Shown piece by piece: positions 6,168-46,097 of a stretch of 64,000 nt of DNA (positions are counted from its first letter, which is position 1; each line of letters opens with the position of its first letter). The stretch is taken from positions 1-64,000 of IMG/VR virus record IMGVR_UViG_2061766007_000957; one strand, given 5' to 3'. Below the pieces are notes generated by a model. It searched no databases. It saw only the letters and a list, made by a program, of their open reading frames with translations, and had not been told where the DNA came from. Source of the stretch: an uncultured virus (IMG/VR IMGVR_UViG_2061766007_000957). Lineage: Duplodnaviria; Heunggongvirae; Uroviricota; Caudoviricetes. The translations under genes and the position numbers were made by a program.

Positions 6168-6745
6168 TCACCTTTATTCCAGATTTGGTTTATCATCTCA
6201 TCATATTGCTTATCTTCTTCGGTACGGAAATCCATATCAAAATATTGTGGGTTTTCATGTTGAAACTTTCTTTCGTGTTTTTCTAATTTTTCAGGCTTTG
6301 CTAACTTATTTCTTATACCGACAATAGTGGATAGCGGAGATTCTCCTATTGCGAGATAATATCCCATAAACGTCCACCAATGCAAATAAGGCAAAGCTCT
6401 TATTTCCTGTCCAGCAACATTGTTTATAGCTGAACATATCAACTGCTCGTCCTTCTCCCAATCTATTAGTCGGGTAGCATTCTTTTCTTCTTTCAGATCA
6501 GATCCACAGTTGAAGAAAATATACATCTGATGTACTGCTTCTTCTATATCCGGAAATGCATTAAGATCTTCTATCCCTTCCATGCCATCATAAAAAATAA
6601 TAAGGCAAGCATATACCCGCTCCTGCATAGAGAGATCTTGATCATTTAGAGCTTTGAAGCAGTCTAATACCATTCTATAATCACCCTGATTTCGAATAGA
6701 ATAAGACTGCTCCTTAATCTTAACACTTATTGGTATTTCGTACAT
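6164..6745 (-). CDS. Bacteriophage Gp15-like tail assembly chaperone
   Basis: DYR..L, IDWEKDEQLI, LHWWTF motifs typical of the A118 Gp15 family. Confidence 0.8.
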   Translation of the reverse strand: MYEIPISVKIKEQSYSIRNQGDYRMVLDCFKALNDQDLSMQERVYACLIIFYDGMEGIEDLNAFPDIEEAVHQMYIFFNCGSDLKEEKNATRLIDWEKDEQLICSAINNVAGQEIRALPYLHWWTFMGYYLAIGESPLSTIVGIRNKLAKPEKLEKHERKFQHENPQYFDMDFRTEEDKQYDEMINQIWNKGD

Positions 6746-9552: not shown

Positions 9553-10911
9553 TTAGCCTAAGGAAATGATTCTGCCGATCGCGATCGCCTTATGAGCAAT
9601 GTAGATCTTATCCGAATTTTCTCTGCTATTTACCAGCTCCCAGTTATAACCGTTCTCAAGCTCTGCATTTGTCGGAGACAATGTAGACATAGAAGCCTGA
9701 GTGAAGCTAATACCATACGGGCTGAAGCACTTACGCTGTCTGCTGTAAAGTGTATCCTGACCACCGAAGCTCTTAGGATCACGGAACATTTCATACGGAA
9801 CTTTTGCACCGCAGTTCGTGTACTCAATAGCGCCATCACCAAAGATGTATGTCGTATACTGATTCTTGGCTTCCGGATCAGTAGCAGTCACAACAGAGAT
9901 CGTACCACCGGCCGGAGCAGTACCGATACCGGTTGTCTTGGTCTCGGGCTGACCTGCGCCATAATGACCAGTCTTCTCCGTTACTGTAAGAACTGCACCA
10001 TCTCTGGATACCGAATATACATTGGAGTTCCAAGCATTTGCAATGCCGGTTGCAACAGCTGTTGCTGTCTGTGTACCTGCTACAGTAAATTCAGCGCCAG
10101 CAACTTCGTATTTCTCACCAGTTGCAGGAGATCCGCCAATCGTTACTGTATAAACACCGGCCTTCGTGCCAACGCTGGCTACCGGCATGCTATCATCTAC
10201 AAGTACAAGACGACCGTTCAGCGTAGCCATGGAAGTGTCACGCTGCATACCGTTTGCATCATTGTACTTCAGGTATGTAAGCAGTTTCAGGTTTTCAAGG
10301 TTCGTAGCAACTGCGGAATGCATGATCGCAAGACTAAATTTGCCCTTATGATCACCACATGCTTTCTGCATTGCGGTATTAAGGGTCGTTGCATCCATGT
10401 GACCGGTCTGTCCTTCACTATTGGAAACAGCCACGATATTATGGGTATGCTTGTCAACAAATTCTGCACCAGCTTCATCATTCATGTTATAAACACCGTT
10501 CATGATATGAACCAGTGTCTCCTGATCGATCTCATCCCAATACTCGGAAATCTGCTGAGCAATATTCTCCATGAAATCTACGCCAGCTGTGATATCATAG
10601 GAGAAGTCTCTTTCTGTCCATGCTTTCGCACGACCTACAACGACTCTCGAATGGCTAAAAGTTTTGGTCTGATCTGCCGTGATATCTGTTACGCCATCAT
10701 AATTAAGAGGAACAGATCCACTGATAAGACCTTTGAGCGGGGTCGTAATGTAATGACCGCCTGTCTGATCCTTCATCGCACCTACCAGATCCTGTCTCTG
10801 CGTTACTGCGCGGGATTTGATCAGCTCGTTGAGTTTAGTATTCGGAATACGATCAACATATTTCTGGAATACTTCACCGTTAAAGATTTTAGAATTGAAA
10901 ATCTCTGACAT
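9553..10911 (-). CDS. Major capsid protein with internal beta-rich (Ig-like) insertion
   Basis: FNGEVF..YV, NYDGVTDI, GRAKAWTERDF, MHSAVATNLE, GGQDTLYSRQR motifs; follows the scaffold gene. Confidence 0.92.
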   Translation of the reverse strand: MSEIFNSKIFNGEVFQKYVDRIPNTKLNELIKSRAVTQRQDLVGAMKDQTGGHYITTPLKGLISGSVPLNYDGVTDITADQTKTFSHSRVVVGRAKAWTERDFSYDITAGVDFMENIAQQISEYWDEIDQETLVHIMNGVYNMNDEAGAEFVDKHTHNIVAVSNSEGQTGHMDATTLNTAMQKACGDHKGKFSLAIMHSAVATNLENLKLLTYLKYNDANGMQRDTSMATLNGRLVLVDDSMPVASVGTKAGVYTVTIGGSPATGEKYEVAGAEFTVAGTQTATAVATGIANAWNSNVYSVSRDGAVLTVTEKTGHYGAGQPETKTTGIGTAPAGGTISVVTATDPEAKNQYTTYIFGDGAIEYTNCGAKVPYEMFRDPKSFGGQDTLYSRQRKCFSPYGISFTQASMSTLSPTNAELENGYNWELVNSRENSDKIYIAHKAIAIGRIISLG

Positions 10912-10951: not shown

Positions 10952-11641
10952 TTACTGTATCGTTAACCCCGGATTTTCGTTTGCAGCTATCATCATCTCT
11001 GTTAATGATACTGGTTTCGCCGCAACCGTTCCCGGAGTAGAACTAACAAACTGAGGTTGCGGTTTTACAGACTGGGGAGCTGGTGTCATTACCTGCGGAG
11101 CTTCGGGAGCCTTTACTGCGAAGGAATCTGCATTTTCTTCCCTATAAGCTGCCGTGAAATCTTCTCTACCAAGAATGTTGCCATTCTTATCCAGCTTCAA
11201 ATCTGCATCCAACATAGAACGAATAAACTCTCTTTTTGCAGCTGCGCTTGTGAAGTCCTGTTTATCTGCAAATCTAGTTACTGCAAACTCATAAGCCTGC
11301 TGATGTAACTGCTGTTTTGAGGTTTTCATATCCTCATCATACTTGCCTTGCAGATCCGTTAAAGCTGCCTGAAGTTCATCTAATTTGATGTATCCTTCAC
11401 CGGCTTCTTTCAGCTGTGCCTGCAAATCCGCTAAGTCAACATCCCGCGATCCAACCGTTTCATTCAGGAGTTCAATCTCCTTTATCTTTGCTGACAGATC
11501 ATCTTCGTATTTATGCTTTGATACATAATTACCTTCGTTGAGATCCGTGAACTTTGCATTGGCTTCCTTTGCCAGCGCTTCAAACTGTTGGTAGGTCAGT
11601 ACTCCGTCCTTAGCCTTGTCAAAAAGTTCCTTTACCTTCAT
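10952..11641 (-). CDS. Capsid scaffolding protein (GP20-like)
   Basis: GNYVSKHKY motif, coiled coil, Pro-rich tail; GGAGG RBS before the ATG at 11641. Confidence 0.8.
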   Translation of the reverse strand: MKVKELFDKAKDGVLTYQQFEALAKEANAKFTDLNEGNYVSKHKYEDDLSAKIKEIELLNETVGSRDVDLADLQAQLKEAGEGYIKLDELQAALTDLQGKYDEDMKTSKQQLHQQAYEFAVTRFADKQDFTSAAAKREFIRSMLDADLKLDKNGNILGREDFTAAYREENADSFAVKAPEAPQVMTPAPQSVKPQPQFVSSTPGTVAAKPVSLTEMMIAANENPGLTIQ

Positions 11642-11668
11642 TCTATTTTCCTCCATTCTTGTTTATAT

Positions 11669-11870: not shown

Positions 11871-13100
11871 TTATTTTGTTGATATCTTTTTATATCCAGC
11901 AACTGTCAATTTATCTTTGCGTGGGCTCAAATTCATTTGTTCTTTTGCAAGCTTATTAAACGCATTATACTCTTTTGTTTTTTGATTTACTTTAGCCTGC
12001 AATTGTTTAGCTAATTCTTCATCTCCGGCCTGCTCCGCTATCATTTGAGCTTCCTTTGCTTTACGGACTTCCAGTGCAAGTTTATTTTGATGCTGCGTGG
12101 CTTCATACCCGGTTAAATGTTTGCCATTTGGTAATGTCATTCCCCGATTATTGTCTTCTAGGATCTTATCCAACTGTTCTTGTGTGTAGGTTGGAACTAC
12201 TCCATCCAATACAATCGGGTATGCAAAGTGTTTACAATTCCATTGACCTATAATACGTTTTTGTGCTGGGAATCGTTTACCATTGATATCTTTGAATCTC
12301 TTATTGGCTTGAAGCCTTGCATATTGCCTTGCAGTGAATATATGACCTTGAAATGGTGCATGATCCGGAGCTGGGTTATAATGGGCTGTCAATTCATATC
12401 CATTAGATCCAAATTGTCTACCAACAAAATCCATTACTTTCTGATTTATCTGACGGATGCCATCTAAAATATTTCGAATTACCGCCGTATCCATTCTTTG
12501 TTTATAGCCACTTTCATATGTAACTGTTTTTAGCCCACTGCTTCCCAGCTGCTTCATAGTACGCCGTATAGCGGTATTATAATCAATAACTCCACTTTGA
12601 GCTGCCTGTACGGCTTCGTCTATTATTGTCTTATATGTCTGCTCCGCATTATAGAACTTTGTCTTTTTTGGGTTTCTCAAATCTCTGAGTGTAAACCCTA
12701 TCATTGTTGAATTTGATAAGTTCTTGAACGACTTTTGTGTTTGCTCTGATACGGCATAAATTATTTTTTGCAGGGCTATATTCTCCGCAATCGGTATATA
12801 GGACAGTTGTCGGTAATCATAATATGGCTTTGCCTCGGCATACGCATCTGCTGCAACATATCGTATCAATTTTTTAATCTCTTTTTCTTGCAGACCACTG
12901 ACCTGTGCTATCATCCTATTGATAGATTTTACGTCAGCTCCCATTTGGTAAAGGCGTTCCAGTTTATATATATCTGATGGGAGAAGCCTTCCTATTTGCT
13001 TCACTCGTTTGGCAATTAAATTAACAATATAAACTTCTATCATTTTTTGCCGATCAACGAATGGTTGTATTAAGTTATCAATATCAATATTTGATAACAT
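11871..13100 (-). CDS. Minor capsid protein (Phage_min_cap2 / MuF-like)
   Basis: YESG, H...AP.H...QG, WNCKH and YEATQ motifs; follows the portal gene. Confidence 0.85.
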   Translation of the reverse strand: MLSNIDIDNLIQPFVDRQKMIEVYIVNLIAKRVKQIGRLLPSDIYKLERLYQMGADVKSINRMIAQVSGLQEKEIKKLIRYVAADAYAEAKPYYDYRQLSYIPIAENIALQKIIYAVSEQTQKSFKNLSNSTMIGFTLRDLRNPKKTKFYNAEQTYKTIIDEAVQAAQSGVIDYNTAIRRTMKQLGSSGLKTVTYESGYKQRMDTAVIRNILDGIRQINQKVMDFVGRQFGSNGYELTAHYNPAPDHAPFQGHIFTARQYARLQANKRFKDINGKRFPAQKRIIGQWNCKHFAYPIVLDGVVPTYTQEQLDKILEDNNRGMTLPNGKHLTGYEATQHQNKLALEVRKAKEAQMIAEQAGDEELAKQLQAKVNQKTKEYNAFNKLAKEQMNLSPRKDKLTVAGYKKISTK

Positions 13101-14815
13101 TACTGATTATCCTTTTTCTCCTGCTTATCTTTACCGCCCTTATTTTTATTGAATGGGAAATCCTGATCTTCATCGTCATTATCATAATTGGCTTTCATGA
13201 TCATATCATTCTCCATACTTTCCATGGCTTCTTTATCCGCAGATGCTAATGCCTGCTGAGCCTGCCGTTCAGTTTCACCAAAGTACCACATACGCATCTC
13301 CAGCTTTGACATAATACCATTCTGCATAAGGGTAATACGTTTATTGATCTCTTCATTGATATCAACAATAATACTATCATCCCATTCAAAGCTGATATCA
13401 TATTCTCCAGCTTTTGTGATCTCATATAAATCACAATAGGTATTCATGATATAAACCACTTCCCGAAGGGTATCTTCCAAGGTCTGCTGAATATCTAAGT
13501 TTGCTTGGAAGCTTCGCTGCTTTAAGATCTTCAGTTCGGTTGCCGTCTTTGCTTCTGAGCTGGCATCACTTAATGTTCCACGGGATATACTGCATACATC
13601 TTCTATGCGCATCAAAATACCATTCAATCCATTGATATAGTTTTGATCCCTTAATGCAGGCGAATACGGAATGAAGGTATCACCAGAAGTGCTCAAGTCA
13701 ACTTTTCTATAAAGTCGTTCCTGCATATGGGATAATACTTCATGATCAAGCCCATCAGCTCCAACCTGCGTCTTCAATGCATCTCGGTCAATATCAATTG
13801 CCATTTCGCCAGCTTCATATTCCCATAATAACCGGCTGTACTGCATATCTGCGTCCTTAATAAGGGATACTGCTCTGCTATAACCGGAAACGCCAAGAGG
13901 TGAGTTAGGATCTATTGTATTTGCTTCGGGCATTTTGAAATAAGAAAATAAAGGCTGTGTGACATTCTTTATAACGGTTTTTTCCTGCAGCCCGCTCCAT
14001 TCAGGTACTTCTTTCAATGGGCATTCCGTTCCAAGGCTGACAACTCTGTCCATAGACATATATACGTCCATATTGTTTGTTCTAAATGCTTTATTGATTA
14101 CAGTAACCTGATTCTTCTGCCATTTATGATATTCAAGCCTGCGATATATGGTATTCTTATCTACTTTTGTCTGAACGAATGCTGCTTCTGTTATATGCCC
14201 ACTTGCATCAAACGCCAGCGGATAAAAGTTATCTGCCTGAATAAAATCAAATTCAATATCGGCTGTATATTCTATATCTTCTCCTTCATTCATCACTACA
14301 TAAGGCTTAATAACCAAACCGCCTTTTGCAATTCCGTATTCGAGCTGTTTACGAAGCTGCTTTTTCAGCTTCTTATATTGCTCTTCCAAATAAGTTGCCC
14401 TATCATCTGAGGACTTGGGGACATCTTCTTTGATCATCTTTGGTTCCATGATAGGAACAAGATTGCCAAACTCGTCCGGTTCAGGTTGCTGATAATCCGG
14501 ATTTTCTATTTCCTTTTGTTCTGTGGCCACTGTAATTTCACTATTAAATTCGATCAACGCCATACGAGCTTTTTCGCTGGCAATCATAGCAGGCAACCCA
14601 AGACTAACTACCCTTGTATGATCTTCACTGTTTGGTTCATGGATCCAATCCGATTTGTTTCTATACATCTTATCCCATAGGATAATTGACTGCTCCATCT
14701 CTGTTGAAATGATGGGAGCTATGTTGATATCTAATGCTTCTCCTATTGTCGTCCCTGCAAACATTTTTTTCCATATTCCTTTCAATACATTTTTTATTGA
14801 ACTAAAGTTAATCAT
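13100..14815 (-). CDS. Portal protein (SPP1 gp6 / A118-like)
   Basis: GG.VIKPY, FYPL.FD, ANTIDPNSPLGVS, KTATE, FEWDDS motifs. Confidence 0.92.
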   Translation of the reverse strand: MINFSSIKNVLKGIWKKMFAGTTIGEALDINIAPIISTEMEQSIILWDKMYRNKSDWIHEPNSEDHTRVVSLGLPAMIASEKARMALIEFNSEITVATEQKEIENPDYQQPEPDEFGNLVPIMEPKMIKEDVPKSSDDRATYLEEQYKKLKKQLRKQLEYGIAKGGLVIKPYVVMNEGEDIEYTADIEFDFIQADNFYPLAFDASGHITEAAFVQTKVDKNTIYRRLEYHKWQKNQVTVINKAFRTNNMDVYMSMDRVVSLGTECPLKEVPEWSGLQEKTVIKNVTQPLFSYFKMPEANTIDPNSPLGVSGYSRAVSLIKDADMQYSRLLWEYEAGEMAIDIDRDALKTQVGADGLDHEVLSHMQERLYRKVDLSTSGDTFIPYSPALRDQNYINGLNGILMRIEDVCSISRGTLSDASSEAKTATELKILKQRSFQANLDIQQTLEDTLREVVYIMNTYCDLYEITKAGEYDISFEWDDSIIVDINEEINKRITLMQNGIMSKLEMRMWYFGETERQAQQALASADKEAMESMENDMIMKANYDNDDEDQDFPFNKNKGGKDKQEKKDNQ

Positions 14816-15453
14816 TATTGAACCTCTACCTTTATTAAGATTTCAACTTTATGCTTTCTACTTTTAATAGCTTCACTAATCTTTCTTTTATGTTCTTCTG
14901 ACATTGGCCCCCTCTTTCGTCCGAGTTGAGATTCTCTTAATTTCTGAATAGTTTCTTTTGACTTAGGTTTTCCGAGATTAGCTTGTCTAATTTTTTCTTT
15001 AGCTTCGGCGGTATGGTGCTTTCCTTTCATAGGGCTGACGCATCCTTTATTTCTGCCTTTAGTCAATTCACTAAACTTCTTTTTCCTTTCATCCGTCCAT
15101 AATTTACCTTTATGTCCTCGAGATATTTTTTTCTTTGCTTCCTCAGTGTGGTTAAAATGATATCCTGAACTATGTTCTCCGCCTAAAGCAGCATTGTAAC
15201 CATATTTATGATCTGTAGAATTATACTTATCTATTAAAAATCTTTCACATTCATAAGCTTTATCAATTGATATATTATCAATCAATACTATATGCTGAAT
15301 ATTATCCCATCCATATTTTTTTATGGCGTTGAATATTCGCGGCTGCCCTTTATATCCTTTTCCATTTTCCCATCTATCATTAGCTTTCTTTTTCTCTGTT
15401 ACACCAATATATATCTTATCATTTGGGAAAACATGAACATATACCAGAGCCAT
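14815..15453 (-). mobile_element. Free-standing GIY-YIG homing endonuclease with NUMOD3 repeats
   Basis: VY......KIYIG.T, AIKKYGWDN, E..LI, GYN...GG, then repeated H(T/S)EE.K.KI(S/R) motifs. Confidence 0.88.
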
Positions 15454-15472
15454 TTACCAGATCTCCTTTAAT

Positions 15473-15583
15473 TTATTCACTATCGCTGACCACATCGTCA
15501 TCTACCTCTTCTTCGTCCTCCGGACCACCACACATCAAATCACATAAATCTTCCCATGTTAGATTTTCGAATACCTCTCCCAT
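15473..15583 (-). CDS. Small highly acidic protein (36 aa)
   Basis: GGAGG RBS; MGEVFENLTWEDLCDLMCGGPEDEEEVDDDVVSDSE; below the ORF-track cutoff. Confidence 0.65.
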   Translation of the reverse strand: MGEVFENLTWEDLCDLMCGGPEDEEEVDDDVVSDSE

Positions 15584-15587
15584 AGTC

Positions 15588-16103
15588 TTACCTCCGTTTC
15601 TTGTAATCGGACAATGCCTGCTTCGCTACAAATTTGACAGCTTCAATATCTGCTTCGTCCATATTTGTCTTATCTATTAAATAATTGAACAGTGCCTTCG
15701 GAAAAACTAATCCATTGGATACCGTATACCCATTTCCATGCAGAGCTTCCTTCGCACTTTTTTCATCCGGCCGTGCTTCAAATTCAAATCCAGCATGATC
15801 ACCAGTCTCTTTATCTTTACCGGAAAACCTCCAAACAATTTCATCCTCATAATCAGCACTAGGCTGAATCATATCTTCGCCAGATTCTTCAAAATGTCCT
15901 AAGATTTTATCGACTCTTTCCATTGTATCTTTAGACATATGTTCCTGAAGAAATTCTGATTCCTTCCATACCTTAGCCATACGTTTCTTTACCTTGGTTT
16001 CGATGCTGGATCTGGTATCGTTTTTTTCAGATTCATATCCATCTTCATAAATCGGAATATGATTTCCATTAACTGTGATCCACGCTTTCGGTTCTTTGCT
16101 CAT
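15588..16103 (-). CDS. WITxNG-tagged hypothetical protein
   Basis: N-terminus MSKEPKAWITVNGNHIPIYEDG. Confidence 0.85.
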   Translation of the reverse strand: MSKEPKAWITVNGNHIPIYEDGYESEKNDTRSSIETKVKKRMAKVWKESEFLQEHMSKDTMERVDKILGHFEESGEDMIQPSADYEDEIVWRFSGKDKETGDHAGFEFEARPDEKSAKEALHGNGYTVSNGLVFPKALFNYLIDKTNMDEADIEAVKFVAKQALSDYKKRR

Positions 16104-16372
16104 CTATAAAACCCTAACCTTTCTGCAAGATAGTCATATAGCTCTTCCTGCTGCTGCTCTGTCAAATCCCTGAATGCTTTGTACCCATAAATAACGCCCC
16201 ATAGGTCAACATCTTCGCCCATCAGGTTTGCTTTATCGAATGCCTTCTCAATCCACTTTGTCATTTTAGGATTATCTTTTTCGAATGACAATAAAGGACT
16301 CTTTTCGTCTTTTTCAAATACAGGGATATGCTTACCGTTTATGGTGATCCACTGCTTTACTTCCTTCTCCAT
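16100..16372 (-). CDS. WITxNG-tagged hypothetical protein
   Basis: AGGAG RBS before the ATG at 16372; MEKEVKQWITINGKHIPVFE. Confidence 0.85.
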   Translation of the reverse strand: MEKEVKQWITINGKHIPVFEKDEKSPLLSFEKDNPKMTKWIEKAFDKANLMGEDVDLWGVIYGYKAFRDLTEQQQEELYDYLAERLGFYR

Positions 16373-17013
16373 GATAACTCCTTTTCTAATTGTATTATAA
16401 GGCATGGTTCATTCCAATACAATGCCATTATCTGTTGAAGGGATTCATGCCTTCCTTCATTTATCAATGAACCGCCAATTAGATGATCCACATGATTGAC
16501 GATGTTAGGTTTTAGATTCAAAACATGAATGCTGGGATACTTGAGTTTTAAGAAATCCCAAAATAAAACATCCACATGCTTTTTGACTTCTATATAAGCA
16601 GCATACTTTACCTGCACTTCTTCGCTGGCATACCACTCGACAAACTCCCGCATGATATCATTTGGTATTCTAATGCAGGGAAATGAATACCACATCTTGT
16701 CTAATGTGACAAAGCCAATTTCAGCTCTACTTTTTGAATAATCATTTACAAAGCCACAGACAATTCCATCATCATATGAATGTGTCAGGGCTCTAAAATT
16801 ACTGCTTATGATAACGTCATCCTGCAGATGCCATGTGCCATCTCCTTGACAAAGTTTCCAGCTTTGCATGAATGCTTTCAAACAGCCTTCTTGCTGTTCA
16901 TCATTATAAATGACAATATCCTGCCTGTGAATGCCTTGATCCTGCATGGATGGGATCAAGTATTCATCAACGTACCATTTTCTTTTTGGACAGGTATGTA
17001 TTAGATATTGCAT
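16357..17013 (-). CDS. Glycosyltransferase-like protein (GT-A fold)
   Basis: IH.CP.R, HLQDDV (DXD-like), SFPCI and P.IVNHV motifs. Confidence 0.65.
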   Translation of the reverse strand: MQYLIHTCPKRKWYVDEYLIPSMQDQGIHRQDIVIYNDEQQEGCLKAFMQSWKLCQGDGTWHLQDDVIISSNFRALTHSYDDGIVCGFVNDYSKSRAEIGFVTLDKMWYSFPCIRIPNDIMREFVEWYASEEVQVKYAAYIEVKKHVDVLFWDFLKLKYPSIHVLNLKPNIVNHVDHLIGGSLINEGRHESLQQIMALYWNEPCLIIQLEKELSWRRK

Positions 17014-17645
17014 ATAAATCTCAACTCCCGTTCCAATGCGCGCTGTTCATCGTCATCATGTAGATCCACCGTATAGTCATTTATGACCGTATAATTGGTT
17101 TTGATCTCATTGAGTGGTGTTCCTTTTATGACCTGCCATAACTCCCACGCCAGCGCCTCCCGTCTAAATTTGCCAGCGCTTTCAAGTCGTTTTGTCTTTT
17201 CAACACACTTCCAAAATCTGTCAATATCCTGCACCTTTAATGCAAAAGGTTCCGCATGATGTTTTGTATAATGACCTGCAAATGGAGCGGCGCTGGCAAA
17301 AAACTCAATATCATCAGTTTTTGTTCCAACAATAGTCGCTATGGCATATCGGCTATAAAATACATCTCCCATTAAATAACAAACCGGGTCTTTCGTTTTA
17401 TAAAAAGCATTTACCCAATGATATTTCTTCCTCCGCCTCCGGACATAATTATCATGATGTAAAACCGGGACGCCTAAGTGATCAAACTTATCGGTATCAC
17501 TGCTAATAGCTATGTCAGTTACATGGTACCGTCTTAATAAAGCAATTGTCCGCTCGATAAGTGTTTGTCCAAAAATGGATCTAAGTGGGTTTGGTATTTC
17601 CTGCTTTACTACCCTAGGACCTCCGCACATGATAATATACTTCAT
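17001..17645 (-). CDS. NTP-transferase / sugar or choline-phosphate nucleotidyltransferase-like protein
   Basis: MKYIIMCGG, G.TLIERTI.LL, YLMGDV and C-terminal DYTVD..D motifs. Confidence 0.65.
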   Translation of the reverse strand: MKYIIMCGGPRVVKQEIPNPLRSIFGQTLIERTIALLRRYHVTDIAISSDTDKFDHLGVPVLHHDNYVRRRRKKYHWVNAFYKTKDPVCYLMGDVFYSRYAIATIVGTKTDDIEFFASAAPFAGHYTKHHAEPFALKVQDIDRFWKCVEKTKRLESAGKFRREALAWELWQVIKGTPLNEIKTNYTVINDYTVDLHDDDEQRALERELRFICNI

Positions 17646-18032
17646 CTAATCTATAGTCTCCAAATAGAATTTACCATCCTTCGATTTAGTGAATTGAAGG
17701 TTTGCATGACTGCCATCTGCAAAAACCCATGCACCTATCTTTTGTCCACCATAACCTACCCATTCGCCATTCTTAACCATTTGAACTTCGCCGCTGGGAA
17801 GATCATATTTCTCAGCATAATCCTCCAGATCACTTTTGCTGATTGTTCCTTTGTATTTTCGCAGGCCTTCAAGTAAGCTGGTCTCAAATTCATCCCGATG
17901 GGGATTGATAACTTCTTTCTTCTTCTCCGGAGCTTTCTTCGGTGGCTCTCCAAAAACATCTTCTCCATTCGGTCCTCGGAACACTGGAATATGATGCCCT
18001 TCAATTGTTATCCATCTATACGGAATGCTCAT
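17646..18032 (-). CDS. WITxNG-tagged hypothetical protein
   Basis: N-terminus MSIPYRWITIEGHHIPVF. Confidence 0.8.
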   Translation of the reverse strand: MSIPYRWITIEGHHIPVFRGPNGEDVFGEPPKKAPEKKKEVINPHRDEFETSLLEGLRKYKGTISKSDLEDYAEKYDLPSGEVQMVKNGEWVGYGGQKIGAWVFADGSHANLQFTKSKDGKFYLETID

Positions 18033-18034
18033 AC

Positions 18035-19351
18035 TTAATTTCCTTTCTTATTTGCGTACTTCTGCAACGCATATCTTACTGCGTCAATACTATGGTTATT
18101 CTCATCGGGATAAGCACTAATAAAATTACCGTCCCTATCCTGCTCGTATTCGTATTCAACAAATTCCCTAAATGTATCCGGACATCTGCGCTTGTCAATG
18201 TAAATATGCGCTAAGCCCTGCAACCATTTAATGCCATAGTCCACCGACCCCGGTCCTTTATCCGCTTCGCGGGCATAAGCTCCAAACGCACGAAAGTCTG
18301 CAATGACAAATAACCCACCACCACCGGGATCGCATATTAGCTGATCCTGATTGGTTAGCAGCTTGCGTTGATTATAAAGCTGCTCATATATTTCCTGCGA
18401 TCGGTTTTTCTTTGTACTCATTTCATCAAAGATATATAAGTTTAGACGCTGGCGATCAAAATGACATTTCACATATCGGGTAGGATCCATAGCAAATCCA
18501 ACATCAAGGCCATGATAAATATGATCAAAAGTATCTATCATTGGCACTTCCCTTATTATCTTACCATCGGCATCCCTATATTGAACGGGCTGGGTCATAT
18601 CCAGGTCTTCCACATTTGGAAATACATCTCCGCCTGTACCTATGGCCTGTCCTAAATACTCATGAATGTATGCCCGCTCATTTATTTCCTTCAGGAAGTT
18701 TGCTTCCTCTATAAACTGCTCACCGAGCCATTCTTCGGGTACATCCAAATAAGTATTCCTGACAACTAACGTATCTTCCTGTCTAAATGTTTCACAATCA
18801 TCTGTATATTCATTAGCCCAGTTATTTTTCGATATCGGTGGGTTGAATGTCCTAAAATCCCAAAACTTATCGCCACCACGCATTGTGGACTGCATTACAT
18901 TACGCAGCTCATTTTCACCGCTATATTGATCCAGCTCCTCAAACCATGTTATACCAATGTAGCCGAAAGGTAATTTGATGGACTTTACCTTTTGCGGATC
19001 ATCAAGTCCCATAAACAAAATTTGCTGGCCAGTGGGTTCGTATATAATCGGTGTTGAAAAAGTCTTTGGGATCTTAAATAAGCTTTCCAGTCCCAGCTTA
19101 TAAATTCCCCATACGACCTGTGAAAAAATACTTTTCTGTACCGTATTACCGATCTTCCTAAAACAAATTGCATGACAATTTGGATTTGCCATGACCAACA
19201 GGGGGATCGCTATACCTCCCACAAACGAGGACTTTGTGGATCCACGTCCACCGGGAAATACGTAATGAGTGTGCCGATGATTTAGAATATCGCGCAACAC
19301 TGGCTTGTACATTTTAATAACTGCATCATCCAGATTGATATTCAGGTCCAT
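18035..19351 (-). CDS. terL: Terminase large subunit (PBSX family)
   Basis: Walker A GGRGSTKS, Walker B WFEE, TFNPP, nuclease GLDVGFAMDP and NHSIDAVRYA. Confidence 0.96.
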   Translation of the reverse strand: MDLNINLDDAVIKMYKPVLRDILNHRHTHYVFPGGRGSTKSSFVGGIAIPLLVMANPNCHAICFRKIGNTVQKSIFSQVVWGIYKLGLESLFKIPKTFSTPIIYEPTGQQILFMGLDDPQKVKSIKLPFGYIGITWFEELDQYSGENELRNVMQSTMRGGDKFWDFRTFNPPISKNNWANEYTDDCETFRQEDTLVVRNTYLDVPEEWLGEQFIEEANFLKEINERAYIHEYLGQAIGTGGDVFPNVEDLDMTQPVQYRDADGKIIREVPMIDTFDHIYHGLDVGFAMDPTRYVKCHFDRQRLNLYIFDEMSTKKNRSQEIYEQLYNQRKLLTNQDQLICDPGGGGLFVIADFRAFGAYAREADKGPGSVDYGIKWLQGLAHIYIDKRRCPDTFREFVEYEYEQDRDGNFISAYPDENNHSIDAVRYALQKYANKKGN

Positions 19352-19354
19352 GAT

Positions 19355-19717
19355 TTATCCTTTAACCTTTTTGATATACATACTGCTGCCAGCTTTTTCA
19401 TAATAGACAATGAACTCGGAATCCGAGGAATCGTTATCGTCTGCTATTACGAAATATTCCCCGTTCGGTTCTTCAACAATAGTATAGCCCATTGCTTCTA
19501 CATCAGCCGCCATTTCAAGTTCCCTTGTCCAAAAATCATTATTTTCGGTCAGCTGCTCCTCGATCATTTCAGCTGCTGAATCATAGCCATTTATCTCGGC
19601 TCTGTCATTGATGTTGTATTCCGATTTGTCCTGTTTGTTGCCAAACGATCCATTCTCATAAATGGGAACATGTTTTCCGTTTATAGTGACCCACTTTTCA
19701 ACTTCCCTGCTCATCAT
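19355..19717 (-). CDS. WITxNG-tagged acidic hypothetical protein
   Basis: N-terminus MSREVEKWVTINGKHVPIYENG. Confidence 0.85.
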   Translation of the reverse strand: MMSREVEKWVTINGKHVPIYENGSFGNKQDKSEYNINDRAEINGYDSAAEMIEEQLTENNDFWTRELEMAADVEAMGYTIVEEPNGEYFVIADDNDSSDSEFIVYYEKAGSSMYIKKVKG

Positions 19718-19724
19718 TTCCTCC

Positions 19725-20816
19725 TTAACATTTTACATCCATATCCACATAACCGGGAATGCCATCCACTTTACCTTTGCTGGTGTATTGCCACATGACT
19801 TCTCCGATATTGGGTTTGTATTGCTCTTTCAAAGTGCCATCATTTTTGCCGTACCGGGCAATCCAAAACTTATACTTTTGTTTAAGGGACTTGTCGATAT
19901 AATTGTTATACCAATTCACATTACAATAGATCCCAGCTTCATATCCACTGACCTGACAATATTGTAAAAACGCCTCGGCAATCTGCGCTATCTTGTGTTT
20001 CCCTGCACCAATCTGCGAAGCATCTTCCAAGTCATACCATATCGGGACATTTCTGCCATTAAGTAATTTGACAACGCTGACTGCCTCGGCATAGGCTTGC
20101 TGAACATTAATGGCGTAGCTGTACTTATATACTCCGGCCACCTTCAGGCCTGCTTTCTGCGCATCTGCGTAATAACGTTCGAACTTAGCATCCGGAAGTC
20201 CACTCTTTATTGTCGATCTTAAAATGACAAAATCTATGCCAGCATTTTTAACCCGATAGAAATCCACTGCGGATTGACATGCTGAAATATCTATACCATA
20301 GCTGTATTGCTTTGTGACACTTTCATTATCATACTTAGGAACGCCATAGCCTCGAATATACCGGCCATTGACCTTAACCGTCCTTCTTTCCACGCCATCA
20401 TTTTTGTTGCCTTCAATGACCGTTATAGTGGATCCATCGCAGGCTTCTACTAACCCAACATGTTCCGACGTCCCTTTATTGTCCCCAGCGCCAGTATCCT
20501 GCCAGTCATAAAAAATGATATCACCGGGCCTTGGTATATAAGCATCATTTTCTTGCCATATGCCTTTTTGCTGCAGCAGTGATATCATTTTATTACAGGA
20601 ACACTCGGTAGGTATTATGGCAGTATAACCACAAGCAACAGCTGCAGCACTAACAGTTGTTGCACACCACGCATCCGTGTACTTCACTTTATAGCCCCGT
20701 GCAAGTGGTTTATGGGAATTGTAAGTGTCAATAATCAGCTTATGGGTTGCATCCCCTTCTTTACAACCAAGCCATGATTTCATTTTGTCAACAATAACAG
20801 ATCTGCTATATATCAT
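19725..20816 (-). CDS. Endolysin, CHAP + GH25 muramidase
   Basis: AWCATTVS, PGDIIFYDW, HVGLVE, IEGN (CHAP); GIDIS, YDLED, WIARY, WQYTSKG (GH25). Confidence 0.93.
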   Translation of the reverse strand: MIYSRSVIVDKMKSWLGCKEGDATHKLIIDTYNSHKPLARGYKVKYTDAWCATTVSAAAVACGYTAIIPTECSCNKMISLLQQKGIWQENDAYIPRPGDIIFYDWQDTGAGDNKGTSEHVGLVEACDGSTITVIEGNKNDGVERRTVKVNGRYIRGYGVPKYDNESVTKQYSYGIDISACQSAVDFYRVKNAGIDFVILRSTIKSGLPDAKFERYYADAQKAGLKVAGVYKYSYAINVQQAYAEAVSVVKLLNGRNVPIWYDLEDASQIGAGKHKIAQIAEAFLQYCQVSGYEAGIYCNVNWYNNYIDKSLKQKYKFWIARYGKNDGTLKEQYKPNIGEVMWQYTSKGKVDGIPGYVDMDVKC

Positions 20817-21025
20817 TCTTTCTCCTTCGCCTGCGCAGCCTTGCCATCAACCCATGCTTCGCAAAAGGCATAAATAGCAGCAGATAATATACCACATACC
20901 GTACCAATAATTGTGACAGTCTGATTGGATGTTGCTATGCCTGCAATGCTGGCCGCAACCGATCCTAAAAACGCGGCTACACAAATCCAAAACTTTCTAC
21001 TTGTCAATTTCTTCTTCCAATCCAT
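20813..21025 (-). CDS. Holin
   Basis: MDWKKKLTSRKFW plus two TM helices and E..VD; overlaps the endolysin start. Confidence 0.85.
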   Translation of the reverse strand: MDWKKKLTSRKFWICVAAFLGSVAASIAGIATSNQTVTIIGTVCGILSAAIYAFCEAWVDGKAAQAKEKE

Positions 21026-21037
21026 TTTTGATCCTCC

Positions 21038-21556
21038 TTATTTTGTTATCTCATGAAATTTTTTATCAAGCCATTGTTTATGTTTACCGGCCATGCGAAT
21101 CCTCGTTCCGGTCTTCATCTCATTAGCTGGCATTCTCCGAACATTACCTTCATCGTCCATAAATACCCTGAACTGACTTCTGGTGGATGGACAATCCAAT
21201 ACAAATCCATTTGCTGTTTTGTATAACTCCGCTGCACCAGTAATATCGCTATCCGAGGTTAATGCTAATTTTCGATTCATTGTATTTAACAATGCATTGA
21301 TATTAGATTCATCAAACCCATTAACCATTGTATCCAATACTTCGCTGATTCCTTCATTAGCCTTGTCACGAGCTTTCTGTGCCTGCTCCTTTGTTATCTT
21401 TCCTTCCCGCTCCATCTTATCGATGTCCGGTTTATAGAGCATTTTAGAATCCTTATACACCTTATAAGGTGTTCTGGGTCCTACCCATCCATCCTCATAT
21501 ATTGGAATGTGATTTCCATTTATGGTTACCCACTTTACCGGTTCCTGTTTAGCCAT
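21038..21556 (-). CDS. WITxNG-tagged hypothetical protein
   Basis: AGGAGG RBS before the ATG at 21556; MAKQEPVKWVTINGNHIPIYEDG. Confidence 0.85.
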   Translation of the reverse strand: MAKQEPVKWVTINGNHIPIYEDGWVGPRTPYKVYKDSKMLYKPDIDKMEREGKITKEQAQKARDKANEGISEVLDTMVNGFDESNINALLNTMNRKLALTSDSDITGAAELYKTANGFVLDCPSTRSQFRVFMDDEGNVRRMPANEMKTGTRIRMAGKHKQWLDKKFHEITK

Positions 21557-21794
21557 TATCTCTGTCCTCCTGTTCGTACTTATGTGCGTATCTTTTCTTG
21601 ATATACCATATTGCAAATGATAAAGTTATTTCTCCGCCCAACACACTAAATACACTTGTGATCAAAGTTGTCGGCTCTGTCTGGAACAAGAAGAATATAA
21701 CTATCATTGTTGCCGTAAATACAAATAGGAATGAAGCGCAGCCTATCAATATTTTATCAATTGTGTTAAACTTAGTTACTGTCTTCTTTGTCAT
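21549..21794 (-). CDS. Two-TM membrane protein (second holin/antiholin-like)
   Basis: Two hydrophobic helices, EP.TLI and GGE motifs, basic tail. Confidence 0.6.
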   Translation of the reverse strand: MTKKTVTKFNTIDKILIGCASFLFVFTATMIVIFFLFQTEPTTLITSVFSVLGGEITLSFAIWYIKKRYAHKYEQEDRDNG

Positions 21795-22227
21795 CTTCGC
21801 TGCCCCATTCCAATTTGATTTTGATCTCATTATCCACTTTGCCAGTCGACCGGAGATCTATATCAGTTGTTCTTTTAGCCAGCTCATTTGCTGCTTTTAA
21901 TCTATCTGACAAGCTGGCTTCCAGCCCGAACTGATCCTTGACTTCGCCATTCATAACGCGGGTGAAAAAGTCCATTACTTCCTTACCGGTTGCTATCTTC
22001 AATTTGTTTTCATCGTGTCGCAAATCGTATATTTTCTTCTTTACGCCCACATGTGACATTAACCGGTAACTTTGCGCCTTCGCCGTCGACTTACTATATC
22101 CAGCCCTTCTTGCAGAATCAACAGCATTACCTGTTTCTACGTAGTATAATGCGAAGTCCAGCTGTTTTTTTGTCAACTGATATTCTTCATCTACTATTGT
22201 ATTGTCAGGATTAGTATTCTTTGCCAT
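21772..22227 (-). CDS. terS: Terminase small subunit
   Basis: LTKKQ..FA..Y..TGNA..SA..AGYS and DRLKAANELAKR motifs. Confidence 0.93.
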   Translation of the reverse strand: MAKNTNPDNTIVDEEYQLTKKQLDFALYYVETGNAVDSARRAGYSKSTAKAQSYRLMSHVGVKKKIYDLRHDENKLKIATGKEVMDFFTRVMNGEVKDQFGLEASLSDRLKAANELAKRTTDIDLRSTGKVDNEIKIKLEWGSEDDKEDSN

Positions 22228-22262
22228 ATCTGCTTAGTACAACTTCCTTTCTTTCTGTCTTT

Positions 22263-22815
22263 TTATTTGCGCCTTCTTTTTGCTCTTTCCTGAGCCTCTT
22301 CAGACCAATTACCGGATAAGCCATTATGTTTAACATTCCAATCACCGCTAATTCCATTCCCGCTTTTTATTTGCTGGGTAATATAATCATCTGCTTCTTT
22401 CGGCGTATCAAATGATTTTACTTCTTTACCCATTGCGGTTACGGTATATTTTTTTAGTTTTGTCATTTGCTTTTTTAGGCGCGTCATCTTTGACAAGTTT
22501 TCCTTTTGCATCTCTTAAACGTTTTTGCCATACTTTTATTCGGCCTTCGATTTCTTTGGCATTACGACCTTCCGAAAATTCCTTATCCCTTTTCAGGCTT
22601 TCTTTTAACTTTTTGATATTTTCATTTGCATTGTCAATTTCTTTTTGTACGGATGTGTTATGCCTTTTCTTATAAGCAGGATCTGTATTCATTCTATCTT
22701 CTCTTCCGGTCATGATCCCACTTTTCATTCTCTTGACCGCATCCCTTTTGGTTTCTCCTTCATATATGGGAATATGACGGCCATTTACAGTTATCCATGC
22801 TTTCGGTTCTGCCAT
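22263..22815 (-). CDS. WITxNG-tagged protein, apparently frameshifted at an A7 run (22449-22455)
   Basis: ORF 22426..22815 starts MAEPKAWITVNGRHIPIYEG; a +1 frame continues to 22263 with no RBS of its own. Confidence 0.7.
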
Positions 22816-22818
22816 TGT

Positions 22819-24405
22819 TTATCCTCCTTNNNNNNNNNNTTCAGCTAACTGAGATGCCAGCATTTGTACTCCATCAGGAGCTTTCCAGGATCCTTTTGTC
22901 CTTGTATATGTTGTTCCATTTATCGTTACTTTATCGCCTTCTTTTTTACCGCGCAGCATATCCTCTATTCTCATCCTAGTGGCAACCTTATCTGATGCGT
23001 GTTTCTTTAAGAAAGATTCATCAGCGGTTTTATTAGCAGTTGCTTGCCGGTTACCTGTCTTTACCTTTTTAGCCATAGGTGTATCCGAAACTCCTGTTTT
23101 ACTTATACCTATTTCCTTATCTCCTATTTTGATTGTCTTTTCTTTATCTATATCAGACTTATTGGATTTATATGAATGTCCATCATCCCAGCTCCCGTCT
23201 TCATTTTGATATCTGCCACCATTTTCAGTAGTGCGATGCAAAGATATCTTATCATCTTTAGCATCCGGATACTTCTCCTTGTATTTACGGACTGCTTCTT
23301 CTTCGCTGTCAGCTTCTACTCTTTCTAACCTTGAATGATGTTCAGTACCCAATATAGTGCTGGGTTGATAGACTGCATAATGCTTAGAATTAGTTTCACC
23401 AGCCGCTTTTTCGTCCCTATCAATCCAAGACTTTAAGTCTTTTTCTTTTGCCTTTAATGCTGCTAATTTTTCATCATAATCCGGTGCGCGTAAAGCAGGA
23501 CGGGTTCCTTCAAACTGTTTAATTTCATCCTGCACATCGGCCAGCTGTTCTTTATATACACCAAGTCTTTGTTCTTCCCCACCATCTACTTTACTTTCTT
23601 TTTCATACTTGCCTTCTCCATGCTCTCTATCATAAGCATCAACTTCATCAGCTAATTCCCTTTCCCGACGTTTTCTGTCATACTCTTTAGGATCTTCTTT
23701 ATCTAAAGGATAATCAACAACGAACTCACTGCTGGGACGACCTCCTTCCTGACCTTTTGCCGGAAACATATCATCATCAAAGCCCAGCTTGTCTTTCATA
23801 ACCTGCTTAGCTTCATCCATTGATATACCAAACTCTTTTGCAATGGCTTTCTGCTCATGTTCTGTTTCAGTATCCCAATCTCCGGACACAGGTTTGCTAC
23901 CATTATAACGTTCTGCTATCTCATCAAGCTTATCCTCATCAATATCGGATGATTTTTTGGTAGAAGTGTCCCTATCAATCCATTTTTCCAGATTTGCTTT
24001 TTTCTCTTTAAGCTTCGCCAGCTTTTCATCATAATCAGCTGCCCGCATACGAGGGGAAGTGCTCTCGAATTGTTCTATATCTTCATTAACATCGCGAAGC
24101 TGCTCCTTGTATGTTTCTACCCTTGCAGCCTTATCCGCATCGCTACCAAGATCTTCCTCATCCTCTTCCCACTGATAGCTGTCTTCCTTGCCATATTCTT
24201 TTTCCCAGCGTTTATTTTCTTCTTCCATCCATTCATGATCTGTTTTATTTGCAGGATCATTATCATCACGCATTTGTGATTTTTTCTTCCCAGATCCACT
24301 GGCTTTAATCTTTTCATATACCCCGCCTAGACTACCGTCTGAATATATGGGTACATGATTCCCATTGATAGTAATCCAAGCCTTGATCTCTTTTCCTTTT
24401 GCCAT
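22819..24405 (-). CDS. Large WITxNG-tagged, highly charged multidomain protein (C-terminus crosses an N gap)
   Basis: MAKGKEIKAWITINGNHVPIYSDG; 52-aa internal duplication; Ns at 22830-22839. Confidence 0.85.
   Translation of the reverse strand: MAKGKEIKAWITINGNHVPIYSDGSLGGVYEKIKASGSGKKKSQMRDDNDPANKTDHEWMEEENKRWEKEYGKEDSYQWEEDEEDLGSDADKAARVETYKEQLRDVNEDIEQFESTSPRMRAADYDEKLAKLKEKKANLEKWIDRDTSTKKSSDIDEDKLDEIAERYNGSKPVSGDWDTETEHEQKAIAKEFGISMDEAKQVMKDKLGFDDDMFPAKGQEGGRPSSEFVVDYPLDKEDPKEYDRKRRERELADEVDAYDREHGEGKYEKESKVDGGEEQRLGVYKEQLADVQDEIKQFEGTRPALRAPDYDEKLAALKAKEKDLKSWIDRDEKAAGETNSKHYAVYQPSTILGTEHHSRLERVEADSEEEAVRKYKEKYPDAKDDKISLHRTTENGGRYQNEDGSWDDGHSYKSNKSDIDKEKTIKIGDKEIGISKTGVSDTPMAKKVKTGNRQATANKTADESFLKKHASDKVATRMRIEDMLRGKKEGDKVTINGTTYTRTKGSWKAPDGVQMLASQLAEXXXXGG
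22830..22839. other. Assembly gap
   Basis: 10 N. Confidence 0.99.
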
Positions 24406-24423
24406 TGTTTTTACTCCTCTCTT

Positions 24424-24828
24424 TTAATAATCAGATAAATCATTTAACCAATTTTGAATTTTCTGCTTCTCTTTGTCTGTTAATTTATTTGACAATAATG
24501 CGTTTTGTAAAGTAGCCATAGCTGATGCTACATTTCTTCCTTCGTCTATACGCCCTTGCAGAAGAAGCTGATATAATTTTTGTAGATCCTTAATATTTAT
24601 CGACTTTGCATTCTTTTCATTTTCTTCTGCTTTTTGCTGCGCTTGCCTTTGGCGTTCAAGTTCAGCATCATGTTTCATCTCTTCTTCGTATTCATCTTCC
24701 TGCTCACCAGAACTGCCACCATAAACAGGAATATTATCATCATATAAAGATGATTCAATATCATCGGGCATTTTGCTATGAATAAGAATATGTCTTCCTC
24801 CTAAAGTTATCCATCTTTGACTTTTCAT
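24424..24828 (-). CDS. WITxNG-tagged protein (degenerate tag)
   Basis: MKSQRWITLGGRHILIHS; ATG at 24828 overlaps the upstream TGA. Confidence 0.75.
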   Translation of the reverse strand: MKSQRWITLGGRHILIHSKMPDDIESSLYDDNIPVYGGSSGEQEDEYEEEMKHDAELERQRQAQQKAEENEKNAKSINIKDLQKLYQLLLQGRIDEGRNVASAMATLQNALLSNKLTDKEKQKIQNWLNDLSDY

Positions 24829-26118: not shown

Positions 26119-26388
26119 CTCACTTTCCATTCTTGCACCGCAATTAGGGCAAAAATTCGTATTTCCCANNNNNNNNNNTTGAAAATCCCTTCCCACATCT
26201 TCATGTTGCGGTCGCTGATTTCCTTGCTTTCTGCATTTTCTTTTGCCTGCTCTATTGCTTGCCACTCCGCATTTGTTAAAGGATAGTCTTTCTGTATTCC
26301 TTTAAGTATTGAAATCATTATATTATTATTCATACTTTCTCACTTTCCATTCTTGCACCGCAATTAGGGCAAAAATTCGTATTTCCCA
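26119..26388. repeat. 50-bp direct repeat (26119-26168 and 26339-26388), the first copy abutting an N gap (26169-26178)
   Basis: CTCACTTTCCATTCTTGCACCGCAATTAGGGCAAAAATTCGTATTTCCCA occurs twice and encodes GNTNFCPNCGARMESE. Confidence 0.9.
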
Positions 26389-39222: not shown

Positions 39223-39747
39223 CTAGAACAATTTTTTTCTTGTTGTATCTATATCAGGCTTTATAAGCTGATTAAGATCCGCATCACTTATTTTAACCTG
39301 TTTAGGAACAGTTAAAAAACTATCTATATGAAATGAATTATCTATACGCATTTGTATATACAATTCAATTTGATTAACAGTATACAATCGGATCATTCGT
39401 CTACCATACAAGTCATTAACGCTGATGGGAATAGCATCTTTATACTCCGCCAGCTTTAACTTCACAAGCCTTTTCATGACTTCAGAATCCTGCATGGCAA
39501 ACCATGATTTATATAAATTTGATTGTACTTGGGTTTTACTAAAAAATTCTCCTAGTCTAGTACCGGGATGTTTTTCTAACATTCGGTCTCCGGTTTTTAC
39601 AGATTTCATGTAGAGTTCTAAATTGCAAATAGAATTGTCAAATACTTCTTCAAGCCAATTACCGTATTCTCTGGTGGTAGTAAGGACAGGGCTAACTGCC
39701 CTATCCTTATTCACCAAAACAAATGTATTAAGACATCTGTTCTTCAT
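39223..39747 (-). CDS. Unknown protein in the modification cluster, C-terminal RKKLF
   Basis: Overlaps the yhhQ stop; ends TTRKKLF. Confidence 0.7.
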   Translation of the reverse strand: MKNRCLNTFVLVNKDRAVSPVLTTTREYGNWLEEVFDNSICNLELYMKSVKTGDRMLEKHPGTRLGEFFSKTQVQSNLYKSWFAMQDSEVMKRLVKLKLAEYKDAIPISVNDLYGRRMIRLYTVNQIELYIQMRIDNSFHIDSFLTVPKQVKISDADLNQLIKPDIDTTRKKLF

Positions 39748-40420: not shown

Positions 40421-40430
40421 TTCTTTTTCT

Positions 40431-40470
40431 CCTTTATTTTTTAATGTCGGTCAGGACTATAAAACGACCC
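40431..40470 (-). ncRNA. preQ1 class I-like riboswitch
   Basis: GUCG-UU-UUAU-AGUCCUGAC-CGAC-AUUAAAAA-AUAA-AGGAG: H-type pseudoknot with an A-rich tail abutting the yhhQ Shine-Dalgarno. Confidence 0.65.
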
Positions 40471-40526
40471 ATCTATTATCAAGAACAGGTATGCCATTAT
40501 CTCCTTTCTCATACTTAGATTTGTTC

Positions 40527-41707: not shown

Positions 41708-41717
41708 ACTTACCTCC

Positions 41718-46023: not shown

Positions 46024-46097
46024 TCGGGAGTATGGGATTCGAACCCATCGTCTTCGGCTTATAAGGCCGCTGCATTCACCTGCTATGCTAACTCCCA
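46024..46097 (-). tRNA. tRNA-Ile (anticodon UAU), CCA not encoded
   Basis: TGGGAGT/ACTCCCG acceptor, GCAT/ATGC D-stem, CGGC-CTTATAA-GCCG anticodon arm, ATGGG-TTCGAAT-CCCAT T-arm. Confidence 0.88.

Follow-up and report, generated by a model that had tools for sequence, protein, structure and literature searches.

What could make eight otherwise unrelated proteins of one phage begin with nearly the same peptide? The question arises in an uncultured tailed phage known from the IMG/VR virus record IMGVR_UViG_2061766007_000957. The stretch of DNA analysed here, called the window, comprises 64,000 of the 64,584 bases of this record (CheckV completeness 96%), and every gene in it is carried by the minus strand. 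A reading of the letters of the window (the original prediction) had noted eight open reading frames (ORFs) with a shared N-terminal tag found nowhere else in the window, and had proposed that they form a capsid-loading system. We find that the tag is a real, widespread and undescribed module, borne by proteins that gene context and fusions place in the class of capsid cargo.

A six-frame scan of the window with the regular expression W[IV]T[ILV].G.H[IV].[IV] returned exactly eight matches, every one of them on the minus strand and within 15.6–24.9 kb. A degenerate DNA pattern applied to the whole 64,584-bp record found the same eight and none more, and the reversed-pattern control found 0. 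When 455 ORFs of the window were scored with a profile of the tag, the eight obtained 29–60 bits and the next best only 2.5 bits, so there is no ninth copy in the window. The set of eight and their start coordinates were therefore correct as originally given. The tagged ORFs are as follows.

t1, 15588–16103, minus strand: 171 amino acids (aa); W at residue 8; acidic body of unknown family; tag score 50.1 bits
t2, 16100–16372, minus strand: 90 aa from the ATG at 16372; W at residue 8; tag score 49.2 bits
t3, 17646–18032, minus strand: 128 aa; tag variant WITIEGHHIPVF; begins 3 nt past the end of the terminase large subunit gene (terL); tag score 36.5 bits
t4, 19355–19717, minus strand: 120 aa; very acidic, 26 D+E versus 11 K+R; tag score 51.8 bits
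t5, 21038–21556, minus strand: 172 aa from the ATG at 21556; tag score 46.0 bits
t6, 22426–22815, minus strand: 129 aa; very basic, 36 K+R; tag score 60.2 bits
t7, 22819–24405, minus strand: 528 aa; 41% charged residues; masked N run 22830–22839 in the C-terminal codons; tag score 44.8 bits
t8, 24424–24828, minus strand: 134 aa; most divergent tag, RWITLGGRHILIH (P to L, N to G); tag score 29.1 bits

Each of these ORFs is a late-expressed accessory protein that consists of a conserved N-terminal module and a fast-evolving body. The tag tryptophan is residue 6–10, i.e. it stands 5–9 residues after the ATG, in all eight, and a purine-rich Shine-Dalgarno-like stretch precedes each ATG (weakest at 16103 and 24828). 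As had been predicted, the bodies are mutually unrelated (best E 0.31 over 28 blastp pairs) and the codons of the tags differ: of 184 pairs of identical residues, only 73 share a codon. Since the synonymous codons differ, it is the peptide that is conserved and not the DNA. The stop codon of t2 overlaps the start of t1, and the sequence aaaaggag upstream of t2 is its Shine-Dalgarno element; t4 ends 4 nt short of the terL start.

Relatives of the individual proteins are few. A protein atlas search with t1 gave no usable match, t3 has one relative only (61% identity) among 5.8 billion proteins, and the t5 relative P0232, 95% identical, retains the tag. In t7, a stretch of about 50 aa (YKEQL..V.....QFE......RA.DYDEKLA.LK....L..WIDRD) is duplicated internally, roughly at residues 95–145 and 280–335; a tagged 590-aa ORF of contig L046 is a partial homologue of t7 and contains part of this stretch. 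The acidic or basic composition of the eight bodies, together with their rapid turnover, would be compatible with roles in host takeover or anti-defence.

The tag itself is a module of about 30 residues. It contains a leader M-A-x-[RK]-E-[VPI]-K-x, a hairpin W-[IV]-T-[IV]-N-G-x-H-[IV]-P-[IV] and, usually, a short helix. The core can be aligned without gaps over 70 non-redundant copies from the window and other phages; W, T, G and H never vary among these copies, and at least 90% of them have P. An AlphaFold2 model of the t6 tag, computed from this alignment, has strands at residues 6–10 and 13–17 around the NG turn and a helix at residues 23–32, with a mean pLDDT (predicted local distance difference test) of 87.6. 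The beta-hairpin with an NG turn that had been proposed originally is thus also predicted by the model, with the addition of a helix that had been overlooked, and the module is predicted to be able to fold alone. Judging from the strand register, W, T, H and P would lie on one face of the hairpin and the aliphatic residues on the opposite face. Two types of tail follow the hairpin, either a helix xEG[EQ][ST]KxxAVxxF or a glycine-rich stretch; t6 is the sole copy in the window with the full consensus helix tail, ...YEGETKRDAVKRM. The invariant residues are retained with both tail types and hence probably do not serve merely for helix packing.

No Pfam, PHROG, NCBIfam or PDB sequence covers the tag, and none of the Pfam models of LPD domains does. 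A PDB sequence search with the tag gave a chance match only (3psq, E 0.09), Foldseek of a 34-residue tag model against BFVD gave nothing at E<=0.001, and a search for homologous proteins with a 40-residue region recovered only the query itself. In the literature, a search with the tag motif strings found no relevant paper, and searches on capsid targeting, internal proteins, MuF and cargo found nothing on such a tag. Two possible activities were considered and rejected. Many copies of the tag have acidic flanks, which makes DNA binding unlikely. Autocleavage at asparagine was suggested by what we took to be a likeness to the NPTH motif of FlhB/YscU, and was dropped because the Asn is replaced by K, R, E, S or G in other copies.

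Tagged proteins in other phages

The DNA pattern of the tag occurs in 102 contig stretches of IMG/VR, and its reversed control in 0. At the protein level, the tag profile matched 1333 protein clusters at E<=1e-3 and 169 at E<=1e-10 among 1.84 billion cluster representatives. Among the best 150 of the 1333 clusters, a single tag lies within the first 15 residues in 114 and further downstream in five, and the remaining 31 have two to four tags. The 114 clusters with a single N-terminal tag represent proteins of 38–1013 aa. In long proteins the tag occurs 2–4 times, between modules. All 112 matches of a second search are unnamed or called 'hypothetical'. In a set with one genome per GTDB species we found ten tag loci. 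Most belong to metagenome-assembled genomes (MAGs) of Clostridia; Desulfovibrio accounts for two and a Melainabacteria MAG for one. A search of plasmids yielded no tag. The profile search that had been suggested along with the original prediction thus yields matches that are N-terminal, multi-copy and linked to head modules, and the motif did not turn out to be part of a larger fold spread over unrelated contexts.

Unlike the bodies in the window, many modules that follow the tag in other phages belong to recognisable families. These are Zeta_toxin (L023, L061), ART/ADPrib_exo_Tox (L045, L021, P0001, P0089, P0097, P0135), LPD3 (L009, L118), NUDIX (L050, P0099), His_Phos_1 (L073), an ATLF-like peptidase (P0019, and weaker in L019 and P0128), KTSC (L030, L072) and MuF_C (L113); tRNA_NucTransf2 and PARP domains were found as well. 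MuF_C is the PBECR RNase of Iyer et al. (PMC5512222). The tag also stands behind the portal domain Phage_portal_3 (L044, L050, P0002, P0013, P0073, P0085) and behind or before DUF2213 (P0009, P0025, P0066, P0154, P0221, P0238, P0242). In phages with such fusions the DUF2213 gene is located between the MuF and capsid genes. Of 30 multi-tag proteins scanned with Pfam, 13 gave no match.

Within IMG/VR, the tagged protein with the most copies has 265 aa and consists of the tag and LPD3; it is encoded at L009:9890–10735 and at about 35 near-identical loci. The gene of this type lies between neck-terminator and tail-sheath genes, outside the head genes.

Terminase, portal, MuF, capsid or neck genes were found beside the tagged ORFs in nine of nine contigs and then in six of nine further ones (15 of 18). 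Among the other three, the context is ambiguous in L030 and L113, and only cellular genes are nearby in L115. The L115 locus (5950–6303) is a 118-aa tagged ORF in a Melainabacteria MAG, among genes for DnaB, CinA and peptidase M20.

In some contigs the tagged ORF has no start codon of its own. Between the upstream stop codon and the tag of the KTSC ORFs at L072:4497–6271 and L030:9384–10882 there is no start codon, and the preceding ORF of about 192 aa ends with ...CGKLH(A/E)KKN* on a run of 9–10 A. A -1 shift at this run would join the ~192-aa ORF to the tag and its cargo. As the same arrangement is found in two divergent contigs, a programmed frameshift or transcriptional slippage that sets the dose of cargo is likely. 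A start codon is also missing from the tag ORF at L091:244–630, where the short ORF in front terminates in nine consecutive G; slippage may occur here, or the homopolymer may have been misassembled.

Head module and candidate readers of the tag

The original prediction had placed the tagged ORFs around terS, terL, the portal gene and the gene of a MuF-type minor capsid protein, and Pfam and PHROG matches bear this out. The genes of the region are as follows.

Terminase small subunit (terS), 21772–22227, minus strand: PF03592 (E 1.1e-21) and phrog_51; tagged ORFs on both sides
Holin and endolysin, 19725–21025, minus strand: between terS and terL
Terminase large subunit (terL), 18035–19351, minus strand: PF04466 and PF17288; t4 and t3 tightly on either side
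Two enzyme-like ORFs, 16357–17645, minus strand: between t3 and t2; weak NTP_transf_3
GIY-YIG/NUMOD3 homing endonuclease, 14815–15453, minus strand: before the portal gene
SPP1-type portal protein, 13100–14815, minus strand: phrog_533 (E 1e-115) and PF05133
MuF-family minor capsid protein (Phage_min_cap2), 11871–13100, minus strand: PF06152 (E 1.4e-65)
Head scaffolding protein, 10952–11656, minus strand: phrog_194 (E 3.6e-14)
Major head protein, 9553–10911, minus strand: phrog_247 (E 9e-84)

The genes for terS, holin, endolysin, terL, the enzyme-like ORFs and the homing endonuclease are interleaved with the eight tagged ORFs. Downstream of the tagged region follow the portal, Phage_min_cap2, scaffold and major head protein genes, and then the neck and tail genes. 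No match to a head protease was found among the scanned ORFs of the window. The genes t4, terL and t3 abut within 3–4 nt, and this spacing suggests that t4 and t3 are co-expressed with the packaging genes.

Which head component might recognise the tag? A faint resemblance of the tag to the minor capsid protein (TLPNGKHLTGYE) had been reported in the original prediction. It did not survive analysis, as the MuF protein obtains no score from the tag profile; a conserved T..G.H present in 14 MuF homologues has a spacing one residue off that of the tag. A complete 111-kb phage, G003, has eight tags around terS and terL and the portal and scaffold families of the window, with the scaffold gene directly after the portal gene. 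No MuF was found in G003 with a MuF profile, PF04233 and PF06152, while the control L056 was found; the PF04233 search missed a weak MuF in L009, so a divergent MuF is possible. A complete tag-rich phage in which MuF is not detected makes MuF unlikely as an obligatory reader, and the portal or the scaffold core appear likelier. The fusions of tagged modules to portal and DUF2213 domains are consistent with a portal or scaffold reader, and are no proof of it.

The position of the tag differs between types of head module. In modules of the window type, 36 of 37 distinct tags are at most 12 aa from the ATG and 34 of 37 are at most 30 residues from the upstream stop codon, whereas in modules with DUF2213, Phage_portal_3 or XkdF none of 22 tags is within 12 aa of the first start and two of 22 are within 30 aa of the upstream stop. 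The leader reads M-A-x-[RK]-E-[VPI]-K-Q in N-terminal tags and R-[MFL]-D-[EA]-E-P-[DE]-[SA] in internal tags (n=56), which occur typically in modules with DUF2213 or Peptidase_S78_2 genes. Both leaders contain E-P/V at positions -4/-3. From these positions and leaders we infer a working form whose tag stands close to a free N-terminus, which would be produced by the translation start in window-type modules and by cleavage in DUF2213-type modules.

Capsid cargo and the rival explanations

We favour, at slightly better than an even chance, the explanation that the tag is a common label of capsid-internal cargo, and that the tagged ORFs are the split, single-gene form of phage polyvalent proteins. 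In such a system the hairpin would present its W/T/H/P face to a conserved internal component of head assembly, the portal or the scaffold core sooner than MuF. The cargo would enter the procapsid ahead of DNA packaging, remain inside when the scaffold exits, and at infection leave together with the DNA. Other phages string polyvalent modules onto the portal gene or onto the DUF2213 gene at the scaffold/protease position. In DUF2213/XkdF-type phages the module is part of polyproteins, behind the R-[MFL]-D-x-E-P leader, and is presumably freed by cleavage, which would give a similar tag-first N-terminus. The SPP1-like phage of the window has a scaffold and no detectable protease, so that each cargo would have its own gene. 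A broader proposal is that the portal or the scaffold core reads the tag as a portable address across lineages, and that this address defines the carried-and-injected proteome of a large group of uncultured phages, mostly of Clostridia. It is more tentative, and we put it somewhat below an even chance.

The closest comparison is with the polyvalent proteins of Iyer, Burroughs, Anand, de Souza and Aravind (2017, J Bacteriol; PMC5512222), who argue, in the parts of the paper considered here, that phages package and inject effectors fused to MuF or portal proteins, and likewise the 'solo' versions encoded by late genes. Like these, the relatives of the tagged ORFs have ART, LPD3, PBECR/MuF-C and peptidase modules among late virion genes, either portal-fused or solo, and the window ORFs themselves lie among the terS, terL, portal, MuF, scaffold and major head protein genes. 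A polyvalent protein is expected to contain 2–15 distinct effector domains per polypeptide (PMC5512222, same parts). Relatives with 2–4 tags and ART, NUDIX or peptidase domains are of this kind, whereas the window ORFs, of 90–528 aa, are single small bodies without a recognised domain. None of the eight bodies contains a hallmark conflict domain (MPTase, ART, LPDs, PBECR), although such domains stand behind the tag elsewhere, and, in contrast to MuF-fused effectors, none has a MuF domain (PF04233 or PF06152), MuF being encoded by the separate gene at 11871–13100. Word searches of the main text of PMC5512222 found no shared N-terminal or junction peptide, and the parts of it considered here are silent on how solo versions enter the capsid. 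The capsid-cargo reading of the original prediction is therefore supported in part: the cargo of relatives falls into classes that PMC5512222, in those same parts, regards as capsid-delivered, and tagged modules are fused to portal and DUF2213 domains, but MuF as a necessary partner is not supported.

Three known systems may be regarded as functional analogues of the tag. The internal proteins IPI–III and Alt of phage T4 have an N-terminal capsid targeting sequence of about 10 residues, in principle portable, that attaches to the scaffolding core and is cut off by the prohead protease gp21. As in the window, a short N-terminal peptide is common to unrelated proteins; those of T4 are head-internal and ejected, and those of the window may be. 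The tag also differs from the T4 sequence in being a predicted hairpin-helix of about 30 residues, and no protease gene was found in the window. In the DarB/Dar system of phage P1, anti-restriction cargo is loaded into the head via an N-terminal region and depends on other head-associated proteins. This signal belongs to one protein lineage and is not known as a motif of many unrelated proteins. Cargo-loading peptides of encapsulins are short conserved peptides on unrelated cargo that is encoded beside the gene of an HK97-fold shell, and they dock the cargo inside the shell. They are usually C-terminal, extended and shell-binding, in contrast to the N-terminal and predicted folded tag of the window.

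Several observations weigh against a capsid-cargo label. The eight tagged ORFs gave nothing above noise in Pfam, PHROG and NCBIfam, i.e. their bodies contain no recognisable effector domain. In phages similar to that of the window the tagged genes adjoin terS/terL and not the portal gene, and this place may merely be a permissive insertion site. The tagged ORF of L115 has no phage gene within 6 kb and is the sole context that does not fit. In 50,697 GenBank phage records, tblastn with three tag queries detected no true match; absence from these records would place the system in a part of phage diversity that does not yet have a laboratory model. The protease/scaffold assignment of DUF2213 is our assumption, from gene position, and a literature search on this family did not settle its function. 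W, T, H and P might be invariant for no other reason than the stability of the hairpin. Finally, the tag is retained where cargo is already fused to the portal or DUF2213 and needs no address, so that the role for which it is conserved may be a later one than loading.

The last observation leads to the possibility that the module is not a procapsid address and acts later, either as an exit or delivery signal, a handle that takes the N-terminus first through portal and tail, or by engaging a conserved host component after the cargo has entered the cell. We consider this rather unlikely. The module would fit such a role in that the tag heads each module even within portal and DUF2213 fusions, and that the inferred mature form has it near a free N-terminus in both types of head module. 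Tag loci occur in MAGs of several phyla, so that a host target would have to be widely conserved. However, the stand-alone cargo of the window would still need a route into the capsid, for which the tag is the sole feature common to all eight. Action after loading and a role as cargo label are not mutually exclusive. The leader R-[MFL]-D-[EA]-E-P conserved before 56 internal tags, and the DUF2213 or Peptidase_S78_2 modules that typically bear such tags, would also be expected if the module were mainly a processing junction, i.e. a P'-side element or exosite for a head-maturation or polyprotein protease, with the N-terminal position in the window as a relic of modules that had split from polyproteins. 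This is unlikely: the window has a scaffold and no protease match and yet eight well-conserved tags with 5–9 residues in front, the tag is at the extreme N-terminus in 114 of the best 150 clusters, and a relic would decay, yet the tag is the only conserved part of the eight proteins.

A module of 30 residues with a hairpin and a helix could have many other roles, and it might act in the producing cell as a regulatory, folding, oligomerisation or nucleic-acid-binding mini-domain unrelated to the virion. Terminase and lysis genes adjoin the tagged genes, and the tagged ORF of L115 lies in non-phage surroundings, as such a role would allow. On the other hand, fusions behind portal and DUF2213 domains place the modules in the head, and the acidic flanks speak against DNA binding. 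A Zeta kinase, ART or PBECR RNase made late in the producing cell would do harm without obvious purpose, but suits delivery as described in the parts of PMC5512222 used here. We judge a role outside the virion to be distinctly unlikely. Chance resemblance, low complexity or a recent local duplication of the gene start deserves almost no credence in view of the counts (eight versus 0 reversed in the genome, 102 versus 0 in IMG/VR), the profile scores (29–60 versus 2.5 bits) and the use of the same codon in 73 of 184 pairs.

The entry of 'solo' late-gene effectors into the capsid is an open point in the picture of polyvalent proteins. If the tag is the portable address of the broader proposal, then polyvalent proteins, portal- or scaffold-fused modules, frameshift-extended modules and stand-alone tagged genes would be interchangeable packagings of one loading system, any tag-first ORF would be a candidate effector or anti-defence protein of the first minute of infection, and such capsids might be loaded with foreign proteins by means of the tag. 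A recognisable tag would turn thousands of hypothetical ORFs of metagenomic phages into a predictable class that probably travels with the DNA, and would flag fast-evolving bodies, such as the eight described here, as candidates for host takeover or counter-defence. It would also offer a simple experimental handle in the form of reporter fusions and four invariant residues.

Other features of the window

The packaging module (14815–21025) is heavily interrupted by insertion of the holin/endolysin genes, the homing endonuclease gene and the enzyme-like ORFs. In the related phages L013 and L080, glycosyltransferase genes are found at similar places of the packaging module. In the 111-kb phage (L023:4819–7579), terL is in three pieces with an adjoining HNH endonuclease gene, and in L034 (891–2456) an intein-splicing domain lies within terL; these indicate selfish elements in the terminase gene of both phages.

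Genes for QueC, a Vut_1 protein (similar to queuosine-precursor transporters), DUF6884 and a dCMP/cytidine deaminase are clustered at 39728–43678. We take this cluster to suggest a DNA modification of the 7-deazaguanine type by the phage of the window. The minus strand has a single tRNA-Ile gene with anticodon TAT at 46024–46097; a raised G+C content (0.47) is confined to this region. The window contains two masked runs of ten N, at 22830–22839 and 26169–26178; the former coincides with the last codons of t7 and lies just upstream of the ribosome-binding site of t6.

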